Of a DNA stretch of 17,097 bases, positions 2,124 to 16,860 are shown one piece after another. Under the pieces are notes generated by a model. It had not been told where the DNA came from. It saw only the letters and a program-made list of their open reading frames with translations, and made no database searches. Numbering within the stretch: the stretch's first letter is position 1; each line of letters opens with the position of its first letter. The position numbers and the translations under genes are program-made. This stretch comes from an uncultured Pirellulaceae bacterium (GTDB lineage Bacteria; Planctomycetota; Planctomycetia; Pirellulales; Pirellulaceae), in NCBI GenBank assembly GCA_964480915.1, contig CAYZRS010000059.1, forward strand, positions 864 to 17,960, read 5' to 3'.

Positions 2124-3359
2124 TTACCTAAGAAACTCGGTCACATCGGACGGTTGACGATCTTTCACAGCAATTAGGTAGGAAAACGTCAACTGGTCGA
2201 TCTCGTCGCTGACGTAGCCAACGTGTCCATCGAGCGCCACCGCGTTGACTCCACCCGGATGCCGACTGCGTGGTGCGGCACCAAGAAATTGCTGGCCATT
2301 GGAAAATCCTGACTGCGGCATTCCCTGTTGATCGGCAAACACGGCATTCGCTGGTCCTCCCCCCACAACCACGTCGTGATAAGTCGCACTATTCGGAAAC
2401 GCGACGTCGTTCGCATCGTAATCGGAGTCCGGTATGTAGAAATTACTCGCACCGATTTTCCCGGAATCGGCCGCGTGCCAATCGAGAGCGACCAACGAGG
2501 CGCCCGGGAACGGCGCCGACCAAACGCCTCGTGAATCGGAAGCTCGGTCCAGCGTCCGCACTTCAGTCGCCAGCAAGGTTTTGGATACGCCATCGACCAC
2601 TTTGCCGATCTTCTGGCCCGCGCGGGAGCCCACATCAAAACCGCCCAATGCGCCGGCACGCGTCTTGAAGTGATCGATGTGCACGACGCTCGTATAGGCC
2701 GCGTAGTTCCCTTTGGCCAATCCGCCACGTCCCGCCACCACATTCCAACCCGATCCGACCGAACTCCCTTCGAAGAATGCGACCGACGCCGTGCCGTCAC
2801 TCGGACACATCAGTGTGCCAAGTGCGGTGGAATAGACGGCGGTCCCGTCTGACCGAACAGGCTGTTCCTGTAGTTTGAGTCCAAAATCAAACTGGTCGTA
2901 CAGCGCTTGCTCTTCCAGAAACGGAAGTATCGTTACGATCCAACTGACGTTGGGACCTGCCTTCCTACCGAAAATATCGAAGCACCCATTATTGGCCATC
3001 TCGGTGCCTAGCCCGACATCTGTTCCAAGCGCTCGGCATTTGTCAGGGTCAGACTGTTTCTCGACATCACTCAACCAGGCCCCAGCTGGCAACGCGCCCA
3101 TGGCGCTTTCGAAGTTCAGCACAGCCAAACCGAGCTGTCGTAGACGATTCTTGCATTGCAGACGCCGGGCCGCCTCGCGCGTGCTGGTCACTGCAGGTAA
3201 GAGCAGAGCCACCAAAATCGCAATAATGGCAATGACCACCAGCAATTCGACCAGCGTGAACGCACCGCGTTTTCGTCGTAATGCTTGATCCCAGTTGCCG
3301 ATCGCTTGGCGATAGCTTGTGGAACGACGCTGGGGATCGAATGGGCTCATGACAGACAT
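2124..3359 (-). CDS. Prepilin-type N-terminal cleavage/methylation domain protein of the Planctomycete DUF1559 family (H-X9-DG protein)
   Basis: ATG at 3359 (second ATG at 3350) with GAGG 6 nt upstream. The type IV prepilin-like leader and hydrophobic helix read RKRG|[25 protein letters not shown], then [31 protein letters not shown], which is typical of DUF1559 proteins. The C-terminal motif is [12 protein letters not shown] (H-X9-DG). The ORF-track extension up to 3977 has no start signal or domain content and is treated as an open-frame artefact. Confidence 0.8.
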
Positions 3360-3560
3360 AGGGCACCTCTCATCACAAGGGCTGGGCTGGCTGGGACGCG
3401 CAGGCAAAACGGAGCGTCGCCGAGTCGCACCGCGCGTTACAAACTCTCTGGGCACAAGCAACGGCACAGTACGCTCGGCAAAACGCTGAGACACTAGATG
3501 CACGTTCTGCCCAAGGGTGCCGCAGAAAAACTGGAATTTCCGAATTTTGTGCCAGCCGAT

Positions 3561-3587
3561 GGAAACTGCAACGTTTGCGATCGGTCG
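3561..3587 (+). promoter_or_regulatory. Candidate ECF-type promoter (GGAAAC -35-like, 17-nt spacer, GTCG -10-like) upstream of the ECF sigma gene; possible autoregulation
   Basis: GGAAAC at 3561-3566 and GTCGCC at 3584-3589, about 45-65 nt upstream of the candidate sigma start codons. This is pattern resemblance to generic ECF promoters (GGAAC ... CGTC/GTC) only. Confidence 0.2.
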
Positions 3588-3649
3588 CCGTGCGCGGCAC
3601 AATAGATGGGACGAGAATACAAGCGTTGGATATGACAAAAGGGGGCACG

Positions 3650-4249
3650 ATGGACAGTTCGGTTCAATTCGCCGAACTTGTTTCCAAGGCCCGCCAAGGT
3701 GACGCATCGGCGCTGGATGCGATCTTTCGCACCTGTCGCGATTACCTGTTGCTGATCGCGAATCAAGAAATGGACGAACGGTTGAAGACGACCTGTGCCG
3801 CCAGTGACTTGGTCCAAGCGACGCTCGTCCAGGCGAATCACAAGTTCGACCAGTTTCGCGGCGATTGTCAGCCAGAATTCCTCGGCTGGGTGAAAGCGAT
3901 CTTGAAGAATGAGATGAAGGGTTCTGTTCGCAAACACTTCCAAACCGAAAAACGAGCCGCCCCACTGCCGCGACCAACCGGCGTTTCCTCTTGGCTGGCC
4001 GGTTCGGCGACTCATCCTATCGACCCAGAACTAACGCCGGCGGCAGGAGCCGAATTGGAAGAAGATGCTCAGTTGCTAAGGCTGGCCATTTTACGACTTT
4101 CGGAAGATCATCGTGAGGTATTGTTACTGCGTAACTGGCAACGTCGTTCCTTCGCGGAGATCGCCATCGAAATGCAACGCACGGAAAACGCGGCGAAGAA
4201 ACTCTGGGCTCGTGCCTTGGTGGCATTAGGAAACGAGATGTGCGAATGA
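3650..4249 (+). CDS. ECF (sigma-70 family) RNA polymerase sigma factor of the Planctomycete Ser/Thr-kinase-associated type
   Basis: A sigma-70 region 2-like N-terminus ([35 protein letters not shown]...[18 protein letters not shown]). A region 4-like helix-turn-helix ([42 protein letters not shown]). Alternative starts are ATG 3632 and TTG 3575; 3650 is preferred because it has an AAGGGGG purine tract just upstream. The stop TGA at 4247-4249 overlaps the kinase ATG (ATGA). Confidence 0.8.
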
Positions 4250-11808: not shown

Positions 11809-11955
11809 CACGAATCCATCGCACACTTGCTAGCCCCTTGGCGGGCCTACTTCGGCACCTTCGCCAGCGAAACCTTGCCAGCCATTCTCCAGTCACGACG
11901 CTCGGCAAAAACGGGTCGGTTGGGTTTGCACAATATACCAATTCTCGCCAACATC

Positions 11956-14178
11956 ATGGGCCCCGACCTCCAACCACAGATCGCCATGTCCGACGTCGTG
12001 ACCAAGAATGCCCAACGAGACTTCACCGTCGTCCGCGACGACGCTGGAGTCCCCAATATTCAAGCCACCACCTGGCTCGATGCGCTCTATGGCCTGGGCT
12101 ATATGCACGCAACCGATCGCGGCACGCAGTTGCTATTCTCTCGTACCGTCGCCAGTGGCCGAGCTGCTGAACTCATCGCCGACAAGGATGAGCTGCTAGA
12201 AACTGATCGGTTCTTTCGCCGTATCGGGCTCCATCTCAATTTGGACCGTGAAGTCGATCAGATGGATCGTCGCACTCACCAACAAGTGACAGTATATTGC
12301 GCCGGCGTTAACGATGGAATTCGTGCCAAACGTCGCTCGCTACCCATGTGGGCGACCGGATACCAACCGGAAAAATGGGATCCTCAAGCGGTTCTTCTTG
12401 TTGGCCGGTTACTCAGTTTTGGCGGCCTGGCCGTCAGCCAGATGCAGAACGAACGGCTGATTGTCGAGCTGATTAAGGCGGGAGCCAACGAAGCAGCGCT
12501 GGCCGAAATGTTTGAACCGCGACTCGATTCACTCGACTTCGACCTCATGCGCGAAGTCAACATTTCCAATCGATTGTCCGACCAAGCCTTGGAATTGATC
12601 GTCGACCTTCCTCGCTTGGCTGGAAGCAATGCCTGGGCCGTGAGCCCTGAAAGAAGCGCCACTGGACACGCACTGCTTGCTTCCGACCCTCACTTGGAAG
12701 TCAACCGCCTGCCAGCGATTTGGTATGAGGCGGTCTTGCGATGGGACTCCCAGTACGTCATGGGTGCCACGCTGCCAGGATTCCCACTCTTTTCCGTTGG
12801 CCGCAACCCCAAGCTCTCCTGGGGCGTCACGTACATGAAAGGTGACACGATTGACTACTTCGTCGAAGATTGCCGCTGTACCGAGGATGGTGCTTGGCAG
12901 TTTCGTCGCGAGGACCAATGGCAGAATTTCACCGTTCGAGAGGAAAGTCTCAAACGAAAAAACAACGAACCGGTACCGCTCCGAGTGTACGAAAACGAAA
13001 TCGGCACGCTCGATGCCGACGTTGATGAAACGGGGGAGGGCAAGTATCTCTCGATTGCCTGGGCTGGACGGCGAGTCGACGCGTCGACCGCGGTTTCGAC
13101 TTGGCTCGATCTGATCCAGGCAAACGACGTGACGACAGCCATGGATGTCGTCTCCGATTGCCCACAGCCGACGCTCTCCTTTGTATTCGCCGACGCCGAA
13201 GGACATATCGGCCAACAGGCCTGCGGTGCCATTCCCAAACGAAGCAACCCTAACGATGGCCTCGCACCATTACCCGCTTGGGACCCGAAAAATCATTGGC
13301 AAGGTTGGCTGCCGAAGGAACTATTGCCAAGCATTTACGACCCGCCAGAAGGGTTCGTGGCGACGGCGAATGAGGAATGCAACCCGGAAGGCGGACCACT
13401 TGTGGTCACGCAGACGGTTCACGACTATCGAGTGCGGCGCATTCAAGAGCAGCTCTCCCAAATGCCACAGGCAACGATTAAGGACATGCAGAAACTGCAG
13501 TACGACGTCGTGAGCAAACAGGCGGAAGATTTGCTCGCCATGGCCTTGCCCTTCATGCAGGAGGGACCACTGAAAGAGATTCTCTCGAACTGGAATTACA
13601 GCTACGCAGCCGATAGCAGCACGGCGCCCGTCTTCCAGGCCTTCTATCGTAATCTGATGTTTGAGCTCCTTGGAAACAAGAAAGGGCTCGGCTGGCGACG
13701 GATCCTGTATCTTTGCTCGCGAGCCGGGTTCTCCTCCATGATTCTGACGGCGGCCGACCGTCTACTGCAAAAACAAGATTCTTGGTGGTGGCATGGCCGC
13801 GACAAGGCAGAACTCATTCGCTCCGCAGCAGACGCCGTTGAATTGGGAACGATTCGCTACTGGTCGGAGATGAACAACTTTCATTTCGCGAACCGATTCT
13901 TGGGCGGGAACCGGGTGGGAAGACTTCTGGGCTACAACACGCGTCAACACGCGATGCCCGGAAATCACGCAACTCCATTTCAAGGTCACGTTTTTCAAAC
14001 CGCGACGCGCGAATCGACGTTCGCTCCGTCCTATCACTTCGTGACCGATATGGGCACAAACGAAGCTTGGACCAATTTGCCCGGCGGGCCGAGCGAGAGT
14101 CGCTTCTCGAAATACTATCGAAGCGACATCCCGCTTTGGCTCGACGGAGAGTACAAACGGCTTGGTGTGACGACTTAG
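11956..14178 (+). CDS. Penicillin-acylase-family Ntn-hydrolase (penicillin amidase / acyl-homoserine-lactone acylase-like) with no detectable signal peptide
   Basis: The alpha-subunit start reads VVRDDAGVPNIQATTWLDALYGLGYMHATDR, like that family. The beta-subunit N-terminal nucleophile context is LPRLAGSNAWAVSPERSATGHALLASDPH, matching the SN(A/S)WAV hallmark. Start is ATG 11956 or 11986; the ORF-track start at 11827 is TTG and its N-terminal extension has no signal-peptide character. Confidence 0.8.
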   Translation: MGPDLQPQIAMSDVVTKNAQRDFTVVRDDAGVPNIQATTWLDALYGLGYMHATDRGTQLLFSRTVASGRAAELIADKDELLETDRFFRRIGLHLNLDREVDQMDRRTHQQVTVYCAGVNDGIRAKRRSLPMWATGYQPEKWDPQAVLLVGRLLSFGGLAVSQMQNERLIVELIKAGANEAALAEMFEPRLDSLDFDLMREVNISNRLSDQALELIVDLPRLAGSNAWAVSPERSATGHALLASDPHLEVNRLPAIWYEAVLRWDSQYVMGATLPGFPLFSVGRNPKLSWGVTYMKGDTIDYFVEDCRCTEDGAWQFRREDQWQNFTVREESLKRKNNEPVPLRVYENEIGTLDADVDETGEGKYLSIAWAGRRVDASTAVSTWLDLIQANDVTTAMDVVSDCPQPTLSFVFADAEGHIGQQACGAIPKRSNPNDGLAPLPAWDPKNHWQGWLPKELLPSIYDPPEGFVATANEECNPEGGPLVVTQTVHDYRVRRIQEQLSQMPQATIKDMQKLQYDVVSKQAEDLLAMALPFMQEGPLKEILSNWNYSYAADSSTAPVFQAFYRNLMFELLGNKKGLGWRRILYLCSRAGFSSMILTAADRLLQKQDSWWWHGRDKAELIRSAADAVELGTIRYWSEMNNFHFANRFLGGNRVGRLLGYNTRQHAMPGNHATPFQGHVFQTATRESTFAPSYHFVTDMGTNEAWTNLPGGPSESRFSKYYRSDIPLWLDGEYKRLGVTT

Positions 14179-16127
14179 GTCGTTCCTCGTAACGGTGCAT
14201 TGGCATCGCCCGCATACCAACGAATCTTACGAGCAAACTTCCGCAACTGAGCATCCGAGATGCCGGTCAAGTCGTCGATACGATTGATCCCGTCGGTCGT
14301 ATCGATCTCCATCACGGTCGCACCATCAAGGATGACCGTAAAGGTCTTCAGTGGCGGTTGGCCATTGAAGACATCGGGAGACTTTTCAAACGTTGTCCAT
14401 TTGATCGTCAGGTTACGGTCGACTCGAACTTGACCATCACCGTAACCAATATCAAACTTCTCCGTCTTGCCATCTAAAGTGATGACGACGTGCGGATCGC
14501 CCCAGATGGTAACGGAGGTCCCTTCACTCGAGTGCAGTGTGGCGCTGTAAGCGTATTGATCCCACTCGCGATCGTCATGCTCATTGGCCGCGTCAAAGTT
14601 GTCCAGGTAGACATTCGTACGCTTGAAAGCGATCATTTCAACTTCACAGTCGACGGTTTCCGTTGACCCGAACACGATGCCGTTGGCTTCCGCTTTGTCA
14701 TTGCCGATACCGATGACCAAGTCATCGATCCCATCGCCATTCATGTCACCCGCCAAACGAACCGATCCTCCCGCCATTGTCTTGCGGCTCGAACCGTTGA
14801 AGATCATGCCACGAGAGCCGTCGCCGCCGTTCTCTTCAGCCAGATCGGCCGTCTTGAATTCGCCTTCGAAATCACGGCTACCAAAGATCAAGTAAGACTG
14901 CCCGGCATCGACCAGTCCATTGGCTTCGGCTCGATTCGCAGTGATCAGCAGATCATCGATTCCATCGCCATTGACATCCTGGCCTCCTTGGACGGTATCG
15001 CCAAGCAAATCGTGGGCGCGATTTCCTTGCACGATGAAGCCATGGGAACCGTCTCCACCAGCGTCTGGATGGAGTTTATACAGTTCCATTTCTGGCTCGA
15101 AGCTCTCGCCGCCAAAGACCACGTAGGTCATACCGACGTTTTTCATGCCGTACGTGTCCGCATGCTGGGCGACAATTGCAAAATCATCAATTCCATCCGC
15201 GTTGAGGTCACCAACCGACGTCACGTTGGCTCCCGAACGATCATGAGCAAAAGTTCCTTTCGCCACGAAACCGCGGCTGCCATCGCCGCCGTTCTCCGGT
15301 TTTAGCGCAGAGAGTTTGAATTCCGCATCGAAACCATCTTCCTGCCCGAAGACGACATAGGTCTCCCCAGAATTCCGAAAGCCGTTCGCGTCGGCATCAG
15401 GGGCACCAATCGCGAAGTCATCAATTCCGTCTCCGTTAATATCCCCCAGGCCCGTGACCTTCTTGCCTGACAGGTCATTGACCGCGGCGCCTTCAAAAAC
15501 GGTTCCCAACCTTCCATTTCCACCACCCGAATCGAACAGCTTCTTCACGTTGAACTTGTTCTTAACGCCGTTTTTCGATCCGTAGACAAGTAGCGACACG
15601 CCGGCTGCGCCGCGGTACTCGGGTACGCCGACCATACCGTCATCGAATCCGTCGCCGTTGACATCTCCGACGTTGATGATTTTCGTCTTGGCAGCACCAA
15701 GCCCCAAGCCGTGGAAGACGATTCCCGAGTAGGTATCAGAGTGCATCACGCCCGAGACGTTCATCGTCACCGAAGCGACGTCTGTGCCGCCCTTACCATC
15801 ACCCACGGTGTACTCGAAAACGTCGACCGCCTTTTCTCCATGAGGGAGATCTTCGAGCGCCGTGCCAGGATCGTAGGAATAGGTCCCATCGGAATTCAGT
15901 TGGACAAAGGCGCCGCTATCGAGCTCGATTTCTTTCCCAACCGCCGTCTCGTCGCCGTTCACCGCCACAATCGACAGCGAATCATTGTTGCCGTCGATGT
16001 CGGCAACCGGCGCCGGTATCATCAAAGACGTTGCCCGACACGGGCGCGATGGCCGGTGTCGAGAAGACATCGTCAACAGCCAATGGAGGCAACTCGAGCA
16101 CTTTGGATGAGTTGCTAAACCCGTCAT
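14175..16127 (-). CDS. C-terminal segment (frame B) of the same protein: VCBS/cadherin-like module, at least five FG-GAP calcium-binding repeats, and a C-terminal WGDPH (von Willebrand D-like) domain
   Basis: The module begins ...DIDGNNDSLSIVAVNGDETAVG...GTYSYDPG...VDVFEYTVGDGKGGTDVASVTMNV. The FG-GAP loops are GDVNGDGFDD, GDINGDGIDDFAIGAP, GDLNADGIDDFAIVA, QDVNGDGIDDLLITA and GDMNGDGIDDLVIGIG. The C-terminus contains WGDPHVVITLDGKTEKFD. The first roughly 36 aa from ATG 16127 overlap real frame-A coding sequence and are probably not translated as such; the true junction is near 16005-16017. The stop overlaps the acylase stop (TTAG at 14175-14178). Confidence 0.65.
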   Translation of the reverse strand: MTGLATHPKCSSCLHWLLTMSSRHRPSRPCRATSLMIPAPVADIDGNNDSLSIVAVNGDETAVGKEIELDSGAFVQLNSDGTYSYDPGTALEDLPHGEKAVDVFEYTVGDGKGGTDVASVTMNVSGVMHSDTYSGIVFHGLGLGAAKTKIINVGDVNGDGFDDGMVGVPEYRGAAGVSLLVYGSKNGVKNKFNVKKLFDSGGGNGRLGTVFEGAAVNDLSGKKVTGLGDINGDGIDDFAIGAPDADANGFRNSGETYVVFGQEDGFDAEFKLSALKPENGGDGSRGFVAKGTFAHDRSGANVTSVGDLNADGIDDFAIVAQHADTYGMKNVGMTYVVFGGESFEPEMELYKLHPDAGGDGSHGFIVQGNRAHDLLGDTVQGGQDVNGDGIDDLLITANRAEANGLVDAGQSYLIFGSRDFEGEFKTADLAEENGGDGSRGMIFNGSSRKTMAGGSVRLAGDMNGDGIDDLVIGIGNDKAEANGIVFGSTETVDCEVEMIAFKRTNVYLDNFDAANEHDDREWDQYAYSATLHSSEGTSVTIWGDPHVVITLDGKTEKFDIGYGDGQVRVDRNLTIKWTTFEKSPDVFNGQPPLKTFTVILDGATVMEIDTTDGINRIDDLTGISDAQLRKFARKIRWYAGDANAPLRGTT

Positions 16128-16860
16128 TCGTTCCGGAAACGGGGCCTTGGGCTACTCGCGTTGCTTTGCCGGTGACAATATCGAAACTGTAAACGCCACC
16201 AGTCTGGTTCGCCCCACCGAACACATTTCCGTCGGCATCGGCGTACATCGCACCGAACGTCAGTTTTTGCAAACCGTTTTCACCAATGGTGGTTACTTTG
16301 CCGTCCATGGTGATCGAGATCAGCTTGTTCTCTTGACCTCGCTGACTCGCATAAAACGTGTCGTCCACCGGGTTGTATGCGATGTCGTAGATGTTGTAGA
16401 GATCGACCGAAGTTTCAATCTTGTTCGCCACCGATTGGCTGTCAATGTCGATCCCATAGAGAACGCCTCGGTTGTTGCCTGGCCTGACGTACAGCAATCC
16501 GTCTCCGCCAAAATCTCCAACGAAGTAGGTCCCTTCGTTCGTCGGCAGTCCGTCAACACGTCCCAGGTTTTCGACTTGGCCGTTGCTGCCAATTCTTCCC
16601 AACTCATGAGACTTCGTGAGGATGCCATAGGCGTAGTTGTCGGCCGATCGAAATCCTACGGCGTTTACCTTTTCACCCGCCTGATGCTCGCCCACGGTGA
16701 ACGACTTGGTCTCGAAGTCGACTTGGCCGGTGCGGCCGAGGTTTGAGTAAATCTGGTAAAGGCCAGCATCGCTTTCGAATACGGGAAGTCCCGTTCCGTC
16801 CATTACGATGCGGTCTTCAAGTTTCTCTACGTTGTTTTCAAATTTAAATTTGCGAGTCAT
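15982..16860 (-). CDS. N-terminal segment (frame A) of a large FG-GAP/VCBS-type surface protein: an uncharacterised beta-rich domain followed by the start of a VCBS/cadherin-like domain; probably continuous with 14175..16127 through a +1 frameshift
   Basis: ATG at 16860 with AAAGG about 11 nt upstream and an AT-richer leader. There is no signal peptide (MTRKFKFENNVEKLEDRIVMDG). The segment ends ...LPPLAVDDVFSTPAIAPVSGNVFDDTGAG and then CRHRRQQ-stop, which is the beginning of a VCBS-like module whose continuation is in the other frame. Confidence 0.6.
   Translation of the reverse strand: MTRKFKFENNVEKLEDRIVMDGTGLPVFESDAGLYQIYSNLGRTGQVDFETKSFTVGEHQAGEKVNAVGFRSADNYAYGILTKSHELGRIGSNGQVENLGRVDGLPTNEGTYFVGDFGGDGLLYVRPGNNRGVLYGIDIDSQSVANKIETSVDLYNIYDIAYNPVDDTFYASQRGQENKLISITMDGKVTTIGENGLQKLTFGAMYADADGNVFGGANQTGGVYSFDIVTGKATRVAQGPVSGTNDGFSNSSKVLELPPLAVDDVFSTPAIAPVSGNVFDDTGAGCRHRRQQ

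Follow-up and report, generated by a model that had tools for sequence, protein, structure and literature searches.

A divergent DUF1521/MIIA-like domain, probably self-processing, at the C terminus of a planctomycete FG-GAP protein

Does the WGDPH motif near the C terminus of a planctomycete FG-GAP protein mark a self-cleaving domain and, if so, to which family of such domains does it belong? The motif lies on a 17,097-nt stretch of DNA (hereafter, the window) from an uncultured Pirellulaceae bacterium (GenBank assembly GCA_964480915.1, contig CAYZRS010000059.1, positions 864 to 17,960). A preliminary description of the window, made from the sequence alone, had likened the C-terminal segment of the protein to the von Willebrand D (VWD) domains of animal mucins and to the repulsive guidance molecules (RGMs), and had suggested a self-processing or covalently anchoring adhesin. 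Our analysis points to a different nearest relative: the last 125–145 residues of a secreted planctomycete protein of about 894 amino acids (aa), whose gene is split by a frameshift, probably constitute a divergent self-processing domain of the DUF1521/MIIA superfamily. The locus adds a new, sub-threshold branch to a known self-cleaving domain and places it in an architecture and a taxonomic group that are new for it.

The position first given for the motif is confirmed by its codons, which fall near the end of a 650-aa open reading frame (ORF B; Table 1). Around the motif ORF B reads ...SSEGTSVTIWGDPHVVITLDGKTEKFDIGYGDG..., and its C-terminal end is ...HSSEGTSVTIWGDPHVVITLDGKTEKFDIGYGDGQVRV...RGTT; base 14510 is the first base of T540, and base 14178 is the last sense base of the frame. 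A motif of five residues can arise randomly on an unrelated C-terminal tail, and GDPH occurred 0.2 times per shuffled window. However, WGDPH, which is found once in the six-frame translation of the window, appeared in only 1 of 300 composition-preserving shuffles; about 48 of 56 homologues, drawn from two phyla, retain the motif; and it sits within a domain that is confidently folded in the predicted structure. Its conservation rules out a chance motif, to which we assign practically no probability.

The homologues were collected by an exhaustive search with a profile of three sequences against 1.84 billion representatives, which returned 60 proteins at E ≤ 1e-3 and 53 at E ≤ 1e-10; a word-index homologue search yielded two relatives for the tail of the protein and three for a 58-sequence profile, which marks the limit of the word index. 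The core of 58 homologous domains was aligned (alignment A3). In this alignment the G, D, P and H of the motif and the V that follows are each conserved at 91–93%, and of the 56 sequences that span the site about 48 retain GDPH as a whole. G38 (in FDIGYG) and W52 (in SWDT) are invariant, T621, L628, L635 and G640 are each kept in more than 90% of members, and no stretch of 7–10 columns is conserved throughout. The common core comprises about 125 aa and lies almost always at the extreme C terminus, with some 100–110 residues from motif to stop; its C-terminal helix (LTDxQLREFA) is followed by a conserved G....PL tail. The lack of flanking cysteines, remarked on at the outset, extends to the entire C-terminal domain and to 55 of the 58 family domains, which hold no Cys at all. 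All in all, the domain is a conserved and autonomous module that is free of cysteines and, with few exceptions, ends the protein. The planctomycete branch carries in addition an acidic N-terminal extension (VYLDNFD...DDREWD): in an alignment of the window protein with P0001 and P0002 (A1) conservation begins at V506, and profile matches cover positions 3–161 in planctomycete proteins and 38–161 in other proteins. The whole C-terminal module has an isoelectric point (pI) of 4.6, with 24 acidic and 15 basic residues.

A search of the last 141 aa of ORF B (the tail) against Pfam at E ≤ 10 gave DUF1521 (PF07481) as the sole match, with 13.4 bits and E 0.079 over 26 residues around GDPH; an NCBIfam scan of the tail gave no match. 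Among the 58 family domains, 44 matched DUF1521 at E ≤ 10 (best E 2.7e-7), and no other Pfam family was matched by more than one of them. At the stricter threshold of E ≤ 0.01, DUF1521 was matched by 30 of 63 full-length proteins, and its gathering cut-off was exceeded by P0020 (26.5 bits) and by the Thermoleophilia genes L007 925–2406 (26.2 bits) and L014 1511–3235 (25.7 bits). For comparison with genuine members of the family, a tblastn search of a plasmid collection provided proteins annotated as 'DUF1521 domain-containing' from Bosea vestrisii and Bradyrhizobium barranii, those of Bradyrhizobium being NopE-like with two or three tandem domains. Comparison by hhalign of A3 with six of these Bradyrhizobium/Bosea domains gave Prob 95.2% and E 2.5e-8 over 60 columns, the aligned stretch being ..V.IWGDPHV..DGK..FD......L.DGT.I... 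Judged by these profiles, homology of the window domain to DUF1521 is highly probable and covers the stretch that would hold the cleavage site; it can be placed as a remote relative of DUF1521/MIIA that scores below the threshold. No DUF1521 structure was present in the copy of the PDB that we searched. One of the plasmid-borne proteins, L017 1451–3592 of Bradyrhizobium barranii (pCC829_2), is NopE-like with three DUF1521 domains, compared with two in NopE1; the last two are near-identical, and its gene is carried by a mobilizable plasmid, where it adjoins an IS5 transposase.

The family DUF1521 corresponds to MIIA, the metal ion-inducible autocleavage domain found in the type-III-secreted proteins NopE1 and NopE2 and in Vibrio coralliilyticus VIC_001052 (PMC6506597, PMC9185962). 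Without metal the MIIA domain is disordered; on binding two Ca2+ it folds and self-cleaves C-terminally to the Asp of GDPH (PMC6506597), and the cleavage site is the conserved motif GD'PHV (PMC9185962, PMC6506597, PMC10602570). It is already in use as a calcium-triggered release linker in engineered proteins (PMC10602570). The preliminary description had regarded a self-processing module of this kind as non-standard in bacteria. Because DUF1521/MIIA exists, with NopE1, NopE2 and VIC_001052 already described (PMC6506597, PMC9185962), the claim of an unknown bacterial feature is wrong. The proposal of self-processing as such appears well founded by homology, as the nearest characterised relatives self-cleave at GD'PH(V).

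The window domain and DUF1521/MIIA have in common the GD'PHV site followed by DGK..FD and L.DGT.I, and both are acidic, cysteine-free and bacterial and lie within an exported protein. They differ in length (125–145 aa in the window branch, about 170 aa in DUF1521) and in their ends, the window branch terminating in the conserved helix and the G....PL tail. The setting differs too: the window domain is present as a single copy at the extreme C terminus of a planctomycete FG-GAP/Ig adhesin-like protein, whereas DUF1521 is internal or tandem in an effector of the type III secretion system (T3SS).

Several observations weigh against reading the window domain as a self-processing member of this superfamily. 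Its own Pfam score is 13.4–13.6 bits (E 0.07–0.08, 24–26 residues), whereas the gathering cut-off is 23.6 bits, and the hhalign match spans 60 of 125 columns and leaves the C-terminal halves unaligned. True DUF1521 has a DxDxDG loop directly after the site (GDPHVDADGDGKDDFDF); the window domain (GDPHVVITLDGKTEKFD) lacks it and also reads VDRNL where the family consensus is L.DGT. NopE and VIC_001052 occur in a T3SS setting, whereas no T3SS gene is present in the 17-kb window. The fold is kept by family members that have lost the motif and read WGNRH, WDPM, SDPM or GSQT at the site. Last, the gene is frameshifted and possibly a pseudogene in this genome.

The relation to VWD and RGM domains was approached through the predicted structure of the core. 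AlphaFold2 (AF2) with three sequences gave a mediocre model, with a predicted local distance difference test (pLDDT) score of 66; with the 58-sequence alignment the pLDDT rose to 92.1 and the predicted template-modelling score (pTM) was 0.86, and the model consisted of eight strands and a C-terminal helix. In this model G18-D19-P20 are three non-strand residues between strand 13–17 (SVTIW) and strand 21–26 (HVVITL), and the flanking strands would therefore place the scissile bond in a tight hairpin turn. Two strands are N-terminal to the scissile bond, and the GDP turn lies between strands 2 and 3. A fold comparison of the AF2 model with solved structures gave figures of 5.5 for MUC2 D3 (92 residues, 2.8 Å), 5.4 for Cypridina luciferase, 5.1 and 5.0 for two chains of MUC5B, 5.0 for MUC5AC, 4.8 for MUC2 D1, 4.6 for FCGBP, and 4.5 for both VWF and the RGMB C-terminal region. 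Cypridina luciferase is a VWD-containing protein. In this ranking the solved structures nearest to the small β-sandwich model are VWD and RGM domains, and a VWD-like fold is plausible for the modelled domain because the ranking is far from random. The earlier label 'VWD-like' therefore stands at the level of the predicted fold; it found no counterpart in any sequence or profile match.

This bears on whether the domain is a genuine VWD homologue, sharing ancestry with metazoan VWD and RGM domains and inheriting GD'PH cleavage rather than having acquired it convergently, a reading that we regard as possible but on balance doubtful. Hemojuvelin, like the window domain, reads GDPHV. RGMB chains had the highest Foldseek probabilities (0.63 and 0.51), and in the model GDPH occupies an early β-hairpin turn between strands, as it does in VWD domains (PMC10880436). 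However, the Foldseek search of the model against the PDB gave nothing significant, with no match at E < 0.2. None of the 58 members matched the Pfam models for VWD (PF00094) or RGM (PF06534) at E ≤ 10, so the profile search that had been suggested as a check came out negative; hmmscan of ORF B and of its last 141 aa at E ≤ 10 likewise gave no VWD or RGM match. There was no Pfam match to the companion modules C8 and TIL, and profile searches with A1 and A3 of all PDB sequences at E ≤ 10 returned no VWD or RGM chain. When the family profile was compared by hhalign with hemojuvelin, only FGDPHVR was aligned, over seven columns at Prob 14%. Against VWF D1 as a single sequence, which is 100% identical to a database entry, the hhalign Prob was 0.07%, and against an alignment of 14 VWF-D1-type VWD domains, all without GDPH, it was 1.7%.

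Differences from the VWD domain go beyond these scores. In VWD, autocatalytic cleavage of the Asp-Pro bond keeps the first strand in the sandwich, and the fragments remain associated (PMC10880436, PMC8267560). The window domain resembles VWD in sequence and profile only at the motif; it has no conserved cysteines and hence no disulfide tying the pre-cleavage strand, lacks the C8, TIL and E modules, is smaller by about 40 residues and has one additional strand ahead of the site. A further difference is a shift by two residues of the DG that follows the motif (GDPHVxxxxDG in the family, GDPHYxTFDG in VWD). The C-terminal domain of RGMA, RGMB and hemojuvelin likewise combines GDPH autocleavage with a VWD-like sandwich, but RGM fragments are disulfide-linked, glycosylphosphatidylinositol-anchored and metazoan, and the match to the window is confined to the seven-residue motif. 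In the searchable literature NopE1 itself is placed among GDPH proteins 'without vWD domains' (PMC8267560). The PDB sequence searches also returned HIV-1 protease: for the stretch SEGTSVTIWGDPHVVITLDGK (window 14490–14540, minus strand, aa 534–556) the best PDB matches were to the N terminus of that enzyme (PQVTLWQRPLVTIKIGGQ), and tethered dimers of it matched at E 0.005–0.05. We judged these matches (PQVTLWQRPLVTIKIGGQ versus SVTIWGDPHVVITLDGK) to be due to chance and rejected a relation to HIV-1 protease.

If the window domain acts as a DUF1521/MIIA relative, its cleavage can be outlined from the biochemistry of NopE1, VIC_001052 and VWD domains (PMC6506597, PMC9185962, PMC10602570, PMC8267560). 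The protein would be exported, and the acidic module would then fold, probably with the help of extracellular Ca2+. D544 would attack its own backbone carbonyl through its side-chain carboxylate to form a cyclic anhydride, breaking the D544-P545 bond. The N-terminal product, adhesin-like and about 788 aa long, would end in ...TIWGD, and the C-terminal one, of 106 aa (11.8 kDa, computed from the sequence), would start with PHVVITLDG. Because two pre-cut strands share the sandwich and no disulfide is present, the 106-aa fragment would stay docked non-covalently until the domain unfolds through Ca2+ loss or force, and the module would act as a built-in breakable or maturation joint. Cleavage may also stabilise the domain, as in FCGBP (PMC10880436). 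By analogy with the characterised domains, we think it likely that the window domain does cut itself. Calcium dependence of the cut is conceivable, but we lean slightly against it: the acidic pI of the module and the five calcium loops of the FG-GAP region provide a calcium context, yet the dependence is uncertain because the EF-hand-like DxDxDG loop, the proposed calcium sensor of DUF1521, is absent from the window domain.

The most likely fate of the anhydride would be hydrolysis; a covalent bond to a target is possible but unsupported, and the covalently anchoring adhesin of the preliminary description, which would depend on anchoring through the anhydride, is pure speculation. A parallel is offered by the self-processing module (SPM) of the RTX proteins FrpC and ApxIVA ('clip-and-link'), which is also bacterial and secreted and undergoes calcium-dependent Asp-Pro autocleavage; through its anhydride the RTX SPM can become joined to another protein by an Asp-Lys isopeptide (Osicka et al. 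2004, as cited in PMC8267560). The RTX SPM belongs to another sequence family, however, and its site is not GDPH. Our profile searches of the PDB at E ≤ 10 returned no FrpC-like chain; an SPM structure is in the PDB.

Members that deviate at the site bear on a further alternative, a structural or ligand-binding β-sandwich in which GDPH is conserved for its part in shaping the hairpin or in binding a metal or ligand, and in vivo cleavage never takes place. One family member reads GEPH, and other sites read WGNRH (P0010, P0011), HDPH, GSQT, WDPM, SDPM, YVGR and GDPW. The retention of the domain's remaining parts in members with WGNRH, WDPM, SDPM, GSQT or YVGR speaks for a non-cleaving sandwich, as do the higher conservation of G38 and W52 in the FDIGYG and SWDT regions (100%, against 91–93% for the motif) and the loss of the DxDxDG loop of true DUF1521. 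Yet the four motif residues and the next Val are more than 90% conserved across two phyla, GD'PHV is the mapped cleavage site of the homologous DUF1521 (PMC9185962), and a strained turn makes for an Asp-Pro bond that is labile by nature. In NopE1/MIIA, cleavage is lost with D-to-A and D-to-N changes and kept with D-to-E (PMC10602570). The GEPH member fits this tolerance: Glu is the single substitution of the Asp among otherwise intact motifs and the sole one reported to be compatible with cleavage (PMC10602570). We therefore consider a domain that is never cut unlikely. Since some members lose the motif yet keep the fold, the fold has a role beyond cleavage.

The GDPH-deficient members that keep the fold are P0010, P0011, P0049, P0050, P0058, P0059, P0061 and P0062. 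Three cysteines occur in the domain of P0058, P0061 and P0062 and of no other member; P0058 and P0061, proteins of about 1,100 aa, carry the domain internally. Such GDPH-deficient members may be non-cleaving, disulfide-locked variants.

The distribution of the domain was surveyed with a degenerate DNA pattern for WGDPH[VI]-x(9-13)-FxIGxG, scanned over 185,579 species genomes. All 16 loci found were in metagenome-assembled genomes (MAGs), either of Pirellulaceae/Planctomycetaceae or of Thermoleophilia/Gaiellales. The actinobacterial members are smaller, with Pro/Gln/Gly-rich N-terminal regions. In the Thermoleophilia MAG contig JAOPYW010000068.1 (L007 1–3777), three head-to-tail paralogues, each ending in a GDPH domain, lie within 3.8 kb; their N-terminal regions are Gly/Ala/Pro/Gln-rich and disordered-looking, and the neighbouring genes are housekeeping ones (thioredoxin-reductase-like, DNA glycosylase, UvrD).

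A domain of this size and placement could also be a C-terminal sorting or secretion tag, comparable to the C-terminal domain of type IX secretion substrates or to sortase or PEP-CTERM signals, with GDPH as the recognition site of a dedicated protease that removes it. The extreme C-terminal position, the distance of about 100–110 residues from motif to stop in nearly all of the roughly 60 proteins, the very different N-terminal passengers, and a size like that of a small β-sandwich tag would fit such a tag. However, no secretion or processing partner gene was found near the GDPH gene in the window or at two Thermoleophilia loci; no conserved machinery adjoins it, and the neighbours there are unrelated housekeeping genes. 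The family occurs both in diderm planctomycetes and in monoderm Thermoleophilia, and the homologous DUF1521 is internal and tandem in NopE-like proteins and cleaves without a helper protein (PMC6506597). Moreover, three small members (P0029, P0042 and one more) have a LysM domain C-terminal to the GDPH domain, which is therefore not always terminal. A tag removed by a dedicated protease is thus very improbable. In the LysM members, cleavage would keep the C-terminal piece at the cell wall while releasing the N-terminal one.

The remainder of the protein was reconstructed from both frames (Table 1). As first described, ORF B carries an FG-GAP region and a VCBS-like module: FG-GAP occurs as five repeats whose DxNxDGxxD calcium loops are at aa 155, 229, 307, 384 and 461, and the other module is of the Big_9/cadherin-like (VCBS-type) kind. 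Pfam matched Big_9 on ORF B at aa 41–123, from position 25 of the 89 in the profile, and the first 41 residues of ORF B have no counterpart in orthologues. The missing start of Big_9, LELPPLAVDDVFSTPAIAPVSGNVFDDTGAG, lies at the end of ORF A and joins ADIDGNNDSLSIVAVNG... of the other frame to give one Big_9 module. ORF A is thus the N-terminal part of the same gene. Consistent with this, tblastn with the intact orthologues L010 and L011 switched from frame -1 to frame -2 at 16003/16004 and 16006/16001, and the two gene parts are contiguous in seven orthologue loci of Pirellulaceae/Planctomycetaceae (about 900–950 aa); in L010 and L011, whose coordinates were checked, both parts are in one frame. 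P0004 (911 aa) and P0007 (903 aa) hold DUF6923, Big_9, FG-GAP and the GDPH domain in one protein. From the contiguous orthologues and the frame switch it follows that the real gene encodes about 894 aa with WGDPH at 786, and the architecture of the protein is DUF6923, Big_9, FG-GAP propeller and GDPH domain. The extra base may be an assembly error or may mark a pseudogene.

Table 1. Features of the GDPH-domain gene in the window (positions count from the first letter of the window; aa numbers refer to ORF B).
Feature	Position	Strand	Details
ORF A	15982..16860	minus	292 aa; DUF6923 repeat domain, Pfam E 1.4e-34; overlaps 5' end of ORF B
Frameshift	16001..16006	minus	one extra base in GGTTGCC; splits gene into ORF A and ORF B
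ORF B	14175..16127	minus	650 aa; ATG at 16127 probably a false start
Big_9/cadherin-like Ig module	15759..16090	minus	start in ORF A frame, remainder in ORF B frame
FG-GAP β-propeller region	14628..15710	minus	aa ~140-500; Pfam FG-GAP E 4.7e-19, five stretches
Whole conserved C-terminal module	14178..14612	minus	aa 506-650; acidic N-terminal extension and core GDPH domain
Core domain	14178..14552	minus	aa 526-650; divergent DUF1521/MIIA-like β-sandwich, eight strands and C-terminal helix (predicted)
WGDPH motif	14490..14504	minus	aa 542-546; codons TGG GGC GAT CCG CAC (14504-14490)
Predicted scissile bond D544 / P545	14496-14498 / 14493-14495	minus	by position in the GDPH motif
C-terminal amphipathic helix	14214..14255	minus	aa 625-638, D.QL.EFA..L; model helix at residues 100-113

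Export of the protein is indicated by the N termini of the orthologues. In L009, L010, L011, L012 and L015 a basic stretch precedes LExLExRxLL, which is the 'planctomycete extracellular' motif (PF07595), with a sub-threshold match in L015 (E 2e-4). ORF A has a degenerate motif of this planctomycete type, VEKLEDRIVM, within window 16780–16860 (minus strand), and lacks the basic stretch; this may reflect further decay or a mis-set start.

Mucins, FCGBP, RGMs and hemojuvelin cleave themselves at GDPH, as do NopE and the MIIA proteins in bacteria. The present family widens the bacterial range from proteobacterial T3SS effectors to large planctomycete FG-GAP surface proteins and small Pro/Gln-rich Thermoleophilia proteins, whose C termini at present receive no domain call in annotation. 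According to the models, bacterial and animal GDPH domains may share a fold, a possibly new and testable proposition: with a pLDDT 92 model of a small, cysteine-free MIIA relative, a shared fold and mechanism, and the residues needed beyond GDPH, become accessible to test. A 125-aa domain without the DxDxDG loop could also serve as a simpler self-cleaving tag. More speculatively, DUF1521/MIIA, including the planctomycete/Thermoleophilia branch, could consist of miniature cysteine-free homologues of VWD and RGM domains; GD'PH autoproteolysis would then be one ancient mechanism serving bacterial effectors and adhesins as well as animal mucins, FCGBP and RGMs, and surface adhesins of planctomycetes would carry the module at the C terminus as a calcium-armed joint of the 'clip' or possibly the clip-and-link kind. 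We think this wider proposal rather unlikely as a whole.

The other genes of the window encode a DUF1559/N-methyl protein, a Ser/Thr kinase, an ABC sugar-uptake operon, a GHMP kinase, a penicillin amidase and an SPFH protein. The DUF1559 protein (2124–3977, minus strand) has its N-terminal methylation motif after an unusually long N-terminal extension of about 230 aa; the DUF1559 family is a hallmark gene family of planctomycetes, and its presence places the window in Planctomycetota. The penicillin amidase gene (11827–14178, plus strand) converges on the WGDPH gene, and the stop codons of the two overlap by 4 nt (14175–14178); penicillin amidase is an N-terminal nucleophile (Ntn) hydrolase, itself activated by autoproteolysis.

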